A stretch of DNA of 64,000 bases from Escherichia coli (lineage in GTDB: Bacteria; Pseudomonadota; Gammaproteobacteria; Enterobacterales; Enterobacteriaceae). How positions within the stretch are numbered: the first letter of the stretch is position 1; the number at the start of each line of letters is the position of its first letter. The DNA is taken from NCBI RefSeq assembly GCF_011045215.1, contig NZ_CP049201.1. The stretch is one strand, 5' to 3'. Shown here piece by piece: positions 25,355 through 25,899 of the stretch. A program made the position numbers and the translations under genes. The notes beneath the pieces were generated by a model. The model saw nothing but the letters and a program-made list of their open reading frames with translations. It ran no database searches and was not told the origin of the DNA.

Positions 25355-25385
25355 AGCGCCACAAGGGCGCTTTAGTTTGTTTTCC
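25353..25385. terminator. bidirectional terminator after soxR
   Basis: hairpin aaagcgccacaagggcgcttt with T-rich tracts on both strands. Confidence 0.6.
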
Positions 25386-25520
25386 GGTCTTTGTCTTTCT
25401 CTCTATCCCGCTGGTACACAGGAGGGTTTCCCCCGACGTCAACACACCTCATTCGAGCACGTGGTGGAGGTTCCGGTTGGTGTTGATGCTTTAATTGTAT
25501 GTCACCGGCGTTTCTTCGCC
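25355..25520 (-). ncRNA. ryjA: possible small RNA (RyjA-like) convergent with soxR
   Basis: From memory an sRNA maps between soxR and ghxP on the opposite strand; sequence shows a shared terminator hairpin and a palindromic AGTATACT -10-like element near 25529-25536; boundaries approximate. Confidence 0.3.
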
Positions 25521-25769
25521 AGTGTAAAAGTATACTTTTTAGCCGCAATATTTTTGTCATCTCAGACGATTTTTTATCGCAATCCAGAACGGTATACGGC
25601 TCGATAACGCTGCAATCTTGCGCACCGACGATAACGTTTGCGCATCAATTGCCTGGTTTTTCTTCGTCAAGACAATAAAAGAGAAAAAAGCAGCAAACTT
25701 CGGTTGAAAAAGCCGCTATGATCGCCGGATAATCGTTTGCTTTTTTTACCACCCGTTTTGTATGCGCGG

Positions 25770-25785
25770 AGCTAAACGTTTGCTT
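25770..25785. promoter_or_regulatory. PurR-box-like operator upstream of ghxP
   Basis: AGCTAAACGTTTGCTT has the AAACGTTT core of the PurR box; two further AACGTTT-containing motifs at 25628-25645 and 25826-25839. Confidence 0.35.
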
Positions 25786-25899
25786 TTTTGCGACGCAGCA
25801 AATTGTCGCAAACCTGGAGCAGGAAGATAACGTTTCGCTGGCAGGGGATTGTCCGCCACGCATCTTGACGAAAATTAAACTCTCAGGGGATGTTTTCTT

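Follow-up and report, generated by a model that had tools for sequence, protein, structure and literature searches.

The 545-bp interval between soxR and ghxP in the 64-kb window (the whole stretch of DNA analysed here) very probably consists of two independent and already described units arranged tail to head: the small RNA gene ryjA/sraL and the PurR-controlled ghxP gene, the latter with three operators supported by its sequence. Both RyjA/SraL and the repression of ghxP by PurR are already known E. coli biology, at the level of textbook annotation. In addition, sequence and conservation support three PurR operators at ghxP, designated O1, O2 and O3, as against the single published site. The features discussed below are collected in Table 1.

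The open reading frames and the K-12 annotation confirm that positions 25355-25899 form a non-coding interval of 545 bp, as the initial annotation had stated. A stretch of 651 bases spanning the spacer region is present in 5,420 of 5,426 complete E. coli genomes, and the spacer differs from that of K-12 at four bases only (25508, 25542, 25586 and 25663), the first two of which lie in the sraL promoter region, both outside its conserved elements. The length of the spacer, which the initial annotation called unusual, needs no special cause: it is made up of the 141-nt sRNA gene, roughly 60 nt that hold the promoter of this gene, an unconserved junction of some 70 nt, and approximately 270 nt that comprise the ghxP control region and leader. 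In Salmonella, Enterobacter, Klebsiella, Kosakonia and others, a gene for a 222-aa GST-like protein is found between sraL and O1, and the soxR-ghxP spacer of the genera bearing it is about 1300 bp long. Neither blastn nor tblastx detected a remnant of this gene in the E. coli junction, the sole homology being on the side of the sraL promoter.

Table 1. Features of the soxR-ghxP region, in window coordinates; positions with a sign are relative to the transcription start of the gene concerned.
Feature	Position	Strand	Basis or remark
soxS		-	E. coli gene; ORFs and annotation
soxR	24890-25354	+	ORFs and annotation
ryjA/sraL, Hfq-binding sRNA, 141 nt	25347-25487	-	Rfam RF01408 and K-12 b4459
soxR/ryjA intrinsic terminator hairpin	25348-25378	.	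Inverted repeat, 13-bp arms, 5-nt loop
sraL promoter	25494-25522	-	43-species alignment; sigma-S features per PMC3753932
AGTATACT palindrome	25529-25536	.	8 bp, -49 to -42 of sraL
Unconserved junction	25545-25615	.	Place of the 222-aa GST-like gene in other genera
Invariant TTGCGCA	25618-25624	.	Just upstream of O1
O1 (box 1 of the initial annotation), ACGATAACGTTTGCGC	25628-25643	+	PurR operator, centre about -103
ghxP core promoter	25704-25739	+	Promoter scan; -35 TTGAAA 25704-09, 18-bp spacer, -10 GATAAT 25728-33
O2 (box 4), weak PurR-like, GGATAATCGTTTGCTT, core AATCGTTT	25727-25742	+	Overlaps -10 and +1
O3 (box 2 of the initial annotation), AGCTAAACGTTTGCTT	25770-25785	+	Predicted PurR operator, about +32 to +47, in the leader
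Putative hairpin P2	25789-25810	+	Covariation; UGCGAC 25789-94 with GUCGCA 25805-10; loop C-rich (CCCC) in most genera
Third motif, putative 3' arm of helix P1	25824-25839	+	Pairing; arm 25830-39 with 25770-79 (left half of O3)
Two near-invariant CAGnGGA motifs	25842-48 and 25884-90	+	Alignment; the second is the Shine-Dalgarno sequence; CCGCC 25853-57 between
ghxP/yjcD (b4064)	25900-27249	+	ATG at 25900
yjcE			E. coli gene in the window; ORFs and annotation

The leftward unit is RyjA, a convergent sRNA that the initial annotation had already named and that proved to be real. The Rfam model RF01408 matches with 153.3 bits (gathering score 39, E = 6e-36) over model positions 1-142 of 142, and K-12 annotates the ncRNA ryjA (b4459) at the identical place. 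The ryjA sequence in the window is identical to that of K-12, and there is no difference of substance from the known SraL (RF01408; Argaman 2001; PMC3753932), with which it shares the full-length model match, the convergent soxR, an apparently common terminator and a -10 element followed by TAA. The RNA runs convergent with soxR, its 3' end at 25347 overlapping the soxR stop region. Here AAACTAAAGCGCC and GGCGCTTTAGTTT form a hairpin, in which 25348-25360 pairs with 25366-25378 and the left arm contains the TAA stop codon of soxR (25352-54). A terminator scan flags this hairpin as a minus-strand terminator. In the plus-strand direction GTTTTCC follows the T-rich arm TTTAGTTT, a tail that falls short of the T-run rule of the scan, and no flag is given. 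The hairpin at the soxR stop appears to be the RyjA terminator and, by its form, would act in both directions. A bidirectional terminator hairpin had been placed at 25353-25373 in the initial annotation; the repeat is real and its form fits a bidirectional terminator, while its extent had to be corrected to 25348-25378.

SraL is described as an Hfq-bound RNA of about 140 nt that is induced in stationary phase (PMC3753932), and for Salmonella sraL a dependence on RpoS was demonstrated by northern blot, a lacZ fusion and RpoS ChIP (Silva 2013, PMC3753932), the sigma-S-dependent promoter being described as a -10 element followed by a TAA motif. In E. coli, sigma-S-dependent transcription would likewise run leftward from 25487 and end at the hairpin held in common with the convergent soxR. 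Since the RyjA 5' end (25487) fixes the promoter, we placed the sraL -10 element at TACAAT (25499 to 25494, that is, -12 to -7), followed by TAAAGC up to -1. In a 43-species alignment the -10 element (TAsAmT), the TAAAGT that follows it, an A-tract near -55 and CTGGCRAA at -35 to -28 (25522 to 25515, CTGGCGAA in this genome) are all conserved.

Further upstream lies the palindrome AGTATACT, which the initial annotation had proposed as a -10 element usable on either strand, as part of a reading in which ghxP is repressed through three PurR boxes of equal standing and this palindrome serves the convergent sRNA. The palindrome is present at the place indicated, its TATACT is similar to a -10 hexamer, and RyjA is indeed transcribed from the minus strand; however, it lies at -49 to -42 relative to the RyjA 5' end, with the conserved TACAAT/TAGAAT occupying -12 to -7. 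Moreover, the sequence at this position differs even within Escherichia, with AGTGTACT in E. whittamii and AGCACCGC in E. albertii, the sequences of other genera being unrelated, and a promoter scan made no call at AGTATACT on either strand. It was rejected as the RyjA -10 on these grounds. About two 8-bp palindromes are expected by chance in 545 bp, and this one is probably such a chance occurrence.

Turning to the rightward unit, the ghxP promoter was the lone promoter-like site in a consensus scan, matching at 10 of 12 positions. In SMRT-Cappable-seq, b4064 is the sole gene of a forward transcription unit (NC_000913.3 4278317-4279876), whose start at 4278317 is supported by 86 reads from M9 and 52 from rich medium (PMC6131387 Supplementary Data 1). 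With a window offset of 4,252,579 this start corresponds to 25738, or to 25739 if the table is 0-based. The latter is suspected, given that the start of thrL, which we take to be at 148, is listed there at 147. The start site, taken from this single data set, falls 5-6 nt past GATAAT and defines a leader of 161-162 nt and a monocistronic mRNA ending at about 27297, transcription from 25738/9 being assigned to a sigma-70 promoter. We also considered a second ghxP promoter at O1, with TTGCGC as its -35 element, and rejected it: there is no acceptable -10 element at 16-21 bp, and SMRT-Cappable-seq lists no second start. The invariant TTGCGCA just upstream of O1 repeats the right end of O1 (TTGCGCA, 25638-44) at a distance of 20 bp; neither an IHF, a sigma-54, an ArcA nor a CytR site fits this region, as judged by their consensuses.

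We then applied a PurR log-odds matrix, built from the 27 other sites of Cho 2011 Table 1 with the ghxP site left out, to both strands of the whole 64-kb window, the training sites themselves ranging from 12.1 to 25.4 bits. O3 is the top match in the window (19.3 bits, exact p = 1.9e-7) and O1 the second-best (18.6 bits, exact p = 3.4e-7), with the best match after these two reaching 12.7 bits. The initial annotation had counted three copies of the PurR-box core. The AACGTTT core does occur three times, at 25633-39, 25775-81 and 25829-35, and this clustering is real, because only about 0.1 matches are expected per 545 bp (11.4 per 64 kb, as estimated from shuffles). Boxes 1 and 2 lie within the range of bound sites, whereas the third box (25824-25839), with 7.2 bits on the minus strand (p = 1.3e-4), ranks under every training site, and chance alone would yield 0.14 matches of that grade per spacer. 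The count of three had also overlooked a fourth PurR-like site, O2, which scores 10.2 bits in E. coli (p = 3.5e-5), below the training minimum of 12.1, but reaches 13.4 bits where a species has AGATAAT. Relative to the ghxP start, the centres of O1, O2, O3 and the third box lie at about -103, -4, +39 and +93, respectively.

The third motif and the left half of O3 are reverse complements of each other (AGCTAAACGT versus ACGTTTAGCT), and the site homologous to the third motif reads GAGATGACGTTTARCT in most genera, where the PurR matrix gives -5 to +2 bits. Taken together with the placement and drift of AGTATACT, these scores make the reading of three equivalent boxes with an either-strand -10 element very unlikely. 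We therefore do not regard the third AACGTTT as an operator; most likely it forms the 3' arm of a leader helix, P1, that pairs with the transcript copy of O3 and encloses the hairpin P2.

In a 71-sequence alignment, 89.8% of P1 cells are paired and most species hold 8-10 of the 10 pairs; at one pair we counted C-G 26 times, U-A 25 times and U-G 12 times, and C-A never. The evidence for P1 is moderate, because it comes mainly from one covarying pair and from related sequences. The evidence for P2, likewise drawn from the alignment, is strong: 95.4% of cells are paired, compensatory changes occur in all six of its pairs, and 68 double-change cells were found as against 13.8 +/- 9.7 in shuffles, with slid controls collapsing. 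Ensemble pair probabilities in E. coli are about 1.0 for P2 and 0.6-0.8 for P1. Because the complementary strand would show A-C mismatches in place of the many G-U pairs, the folded molecule would be the plus-strand ghxP leader RNA. The E. coli leader alone has no unusual fold stability (z = -0.17), and the case for a leader structure is therefore made from covariation, not from energy. A permissive cmscan (Rfam 15) of 24000-27500 found sraL alone, which led us to reject a riboswitch or any other known leader family for ghxP, and a prediction of pairing between SraL and the ghxP leader by RNAduplex was set aside as an uninformative long-sequence artefact.

Published data bear directly on the control of ghxP by PurR. 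The ChIP-chip study of Cho 2011 (Table 1; PMC3159470) reports a PurR-bound region at 4,275,855-4,276,485 (old coordinates; approximately 25253-25883 of the window), labelled ryjA/yjcD, with a log ratio of 2.08 in the presence of adenine and no binding without it. The motif given for this region, ACGATAACGTTTGCGC (PMC3159470), is identical to O1. All the boxes, O3 included, fall within the roughly 630 bp of this bound region, and the distinction between O1 and O3 is below its resolution. Furthermore, ghxP is a member of the PurR-1 co-expression module, whose i-modulon motif match at 4278206 is again O1 (Sastry 2019, PMC6892915), and Kozmin 2013 (PMC3809563) cites PurR-dependent repression of ghxP by adenine and itself reports 4-fold repression by HAP. 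A mention of yjcD in a G-quadruplex paper was found to concern a different locus. It is thus established that this region is occupied in vivo, at high purine levels, by PurR carrying hypoxanthine or guanine and that ghxP falls with the PurR-1 module, in agreement with the PurR control suggested in the initial annotation.

In its 16-bp palindromic boxes with a central CG, its adenine-dependent binding in vivo, its co-regulation with the pur genes and its purine-related product, ghxP resembles the promoters of the pur regulon (PUR box ACGNAAACGTTTGCNT; PMC3159470). It differs in layout: a PUR box is usually the only one at its promoter and sits between -35 and -10 (PMC3159470), whereas the strong boxes of ghxP are at about -103 and about +39, with a weak one on the core promoter.

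To compare this layout across the Enterobacteriaceae, we assembled 80 enterobacterial loci, taking one genome per species with GhxP. O1 was found in 79 of the 80, O2 (at least 9 bits) in 78 and O3 in all 80; equivalents of the third box reaching at least 9 bits were confined to three Citrobacter. The start-to-start distance from O1 to O2 is 99 bp in 77 of 79 loci and 100 bp in the other two, the distance from O1 to GTTGAAA being 75 or 76 bp and that from GTTGAAA to O2 24 bp in 80/80. GTTGAAA and GATAAT are themselves invariant and at fixed spacing in all 80 loci, and GATAATCGTTTGC within O2 is invariant across genera. By comparison, the 59-nt stretch from O1 to the -35 element has a mean ungapped identity of 59%, with a minimum of 32%, and the distances from O2 to O3 (42-205 bp) and from O3 to the ATG (114-190 bp) vary widely. 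O1 is thus length-locked to the core promoter and O3 travels with the leader, because the 99-bp spacing is fixed and the downstream spacings vary.

As separate observations on these sites, the -10 hexamer and the initially transcribed sequence could by themselves account for the conservation of O2, and part of the conservation of O3, which is also an arm of a conserved RNA helix, could reflect RNA function. O2, O3, the fixed spacing and the leader structure were absent from the literature that we examined, where Cho 2011 and Sastry 2019 give box 1 only; curated regulon databases may list extra boxes.

Could O1 be the only site that binds PurR, with O2 kept as the -10 element and start and O3 as a helix arm? 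The two published maps (PMC3159470; PMC6892915) give O1 alone, O2 is weak in E. coli, and covariation supports the helix in which O3 pairs with 25830-39. On the other hand, O3 beats O1 on the PurR matrix, an unlikely accident at p = 2e-7, and the variants of O3 found among the loci (C, T or G at position 3; TAAACG or TAATCG) are within the tolerance of real PUR boxes. The invariance of O2 extends beyond the -10 hexamer to CGTTTGC, a PUR half-site, and a sole operator at -103 would be poorly placed for repression. We consider a single operator unlikely, and sequence and conservation favour the three operators O1, O2 and O3, with PurR predicted to occupy O2 and O3 as well and the work of repression presumably divided among them.

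It was also necessary to ask which gene O1 serves, given that it lies between divergent starts and that the published label, ryjA/yjcD, makes no choice between them. Control of ryjA by O1, instead of or besides ghxP, is the least probable alternative that we weighed, and we give it very little credence: the centre of O1 is about 148 bp upstream of the ryjA start, and sigma-S already accounts for sraL transcription. Furthermore, the GST-like gene parts sraL from O1 in most genera, O1 remaining with ghxP in those cases at more than 800 bp from sraL, whereas the 75 bp between O1 and the ghxP -35 element are fixed.

Assigning all three operators to ghxP, we propose that PurR loaded with its corepressor, hypoxanthine or guanine, would bind the 16-bp PUR boxes and switch ghxP off. 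The circuit is a negative feedback loop, because GhxP imports hypoxanthine and guanine, the corepressors of PurR. Within it, the weak O2, lying across -10 and +1, would occlude RNA polymerase, and the strong O3 at about +39 may act as a roadblock to elongation, as reported for PurR at purB and purR, where sites downstream of the start block elongation (Cho 2011, PMC3159470). The likeness to purB and purR lies in the position of O3 downstream of the start; ghxP differs in that its downstream operator is in the untranslated leader, and that the transcript copy of O3 also appears to form an RNA helix. O1 cannot repress by simple occlusion, since at -103 it is too distant, and this strong site would instead aid repression in a length-dependent manner, which is the weakest step of the proposal.

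The helical repeat of loops in vivo is about 11 bp per turn, and 99 bp are about nine turns. The placement of O1 exactly 99 bp from the operator at the start site may reflect cooperative or looped binding of PurR. By analogy, ghxP would resemble the multi-operator systems of lac, where O1 and O3 are 92 bp apart, and gal, where OE and OI are separated by about 113 bp and loop with HU, in having an auxiliary operator about 100 bp upstream of the proximal one, at a distance that is kept as the intervening sequence drifts. LacI is, however, a tetramer and GalR loops only with HU, whereas PurR is, to our knowledge, known only as a dimer that has no tetramerisation domain, and we know of no report of PurR looping.

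A more elaborate scheme, in which ghxP is controlled in two layers by a three-operator PurR assembly and by a conserved structured leader that adds post-transcriptional control, is at present doubtful as a whole. Its leader layer would comprise P1 enclosing P2, followed by the pair of CAGnGGA motifs, possibly with control of the CsrA type or through an anti-Shine-Dalgarno switch, although any such role for the CAGnGGA pair is speculation. Our literature search found no link between CsrA and ghxP/yjcD, and likewise nothing on these motifs.

Published PurR maps place one site at ghxP, where sequence and conservation argue for three, set out with a strict 99-bp spacing, and the 161-nt ghxP leader appears to hold an unannotated structure that has covariation support. 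If confirmed, this arrangement would refine our view of how a permease that imports the corepressors of its own repressor is throttled, and it would provide a simple test case for cooperation among PurR dimers.

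In the control region of ghxP, which encodes the guanine/hypoxanthine permease, the interval from PurR box 1 to the weak, PurR-like box at the start site is 99 bp in 77 of the 79 species compared (window 25628 to 25742; loci L003-L081). Despite this fixed spacing, a stretch of 59 nt within the interval has only 59% identity across species; other spacings of the control region range from 42 to 205 bp. Directly upstream of box 1, the motif TTGCGCA (25618-25624) is invariant in about 78 species and repeats the TTGCGCA found 20 bp away at the right end of the box, with TGTTGC also present about 10 bp further upstream in most genera; a match of the motif to a known factor was looked for and not found. 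The next-best matches to the PurR matrix elsewhere in the window score about as high as the weakest ChIP-bound sites; chance alone should yield about 1.8 matches of this level in 64 kb, so both are probably noise.

Coordinates of the features discussed (window positions, or the locus's own positions where a locus is named)
Feature	Position	Remark
PurR matrix match	20048-20063	12.7 bits
PurR matrix match	12295-12310	12.4 bits
Hairpin P2	25789-25810	ghxP 5' leader
Helix P1	25770-25779 x 25830-25839	ghxP 5' leader
CAGnGGA, copy 1	25842-25848	copies 42 nt apart
CAGnGGA, copy 2	25884-25890	
Glutathione-S-transferase-like gene	L007 1487-2155	
Glutathione-S-transferase-like gene	L024 about 1533-2203	E. 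cloacae
GC-rich repeat insert	L082 168-304	after window position 25366

In many genera, including Salmonella, Enterobacter, Klebsiella and Kosakonia, a glutathione-S-transferase-like gene of 222 aa separates the small RNA gene sraL (ryjA) from this control region. The gene appears to be frameshifted and split into two ORFs in E. cloacae; it is absent from Escherichia and from some Citrobacter and Trabulsiella, and no remnant of it was found between sraL and ghxP in E. coli. Two public contigs (L002 and L077) are probably contaminated or mis-binned: one bears the label 'Bacillota bacterium MAG' but matches the soxR-ghxP locus of E. coli at 100% identity, and one labelled 'Chryseobacterium sp. 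18061' holds an enterobacterial soxR-sraL-ghxP locus. Separately, the soxR/ryjA terminator is interrupted in 3 of the 5,426 complete genomes of E. coli by a GC-rich repeat of about 137 nt, accompanied by a 22-bp duplication of 25345-25366; the repeat has a median of 5 partial copies per genome.

Within the ghxP leader, the near-invariant motif CAGnGGA occurs twice, its second copy being the Shine-Dalgarno sequence, and CCGCC (25853-57) lies between the copies. The layout resembles that of paired CsrA sites, or of an SD sequence with its anti-SD; a literature search gave no link for it. Further upstream, the transcribed PurR box pairs with the 'third box' to form the arms of predicted helix P1. 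This helix encloses hairpin P2, in which 6 of 6 pairs show compensatory changes, and the leader matched no Rfam family. These covariations indicate that the ghxP 5' leader carries a conserved, so far unannotated RNA structure.
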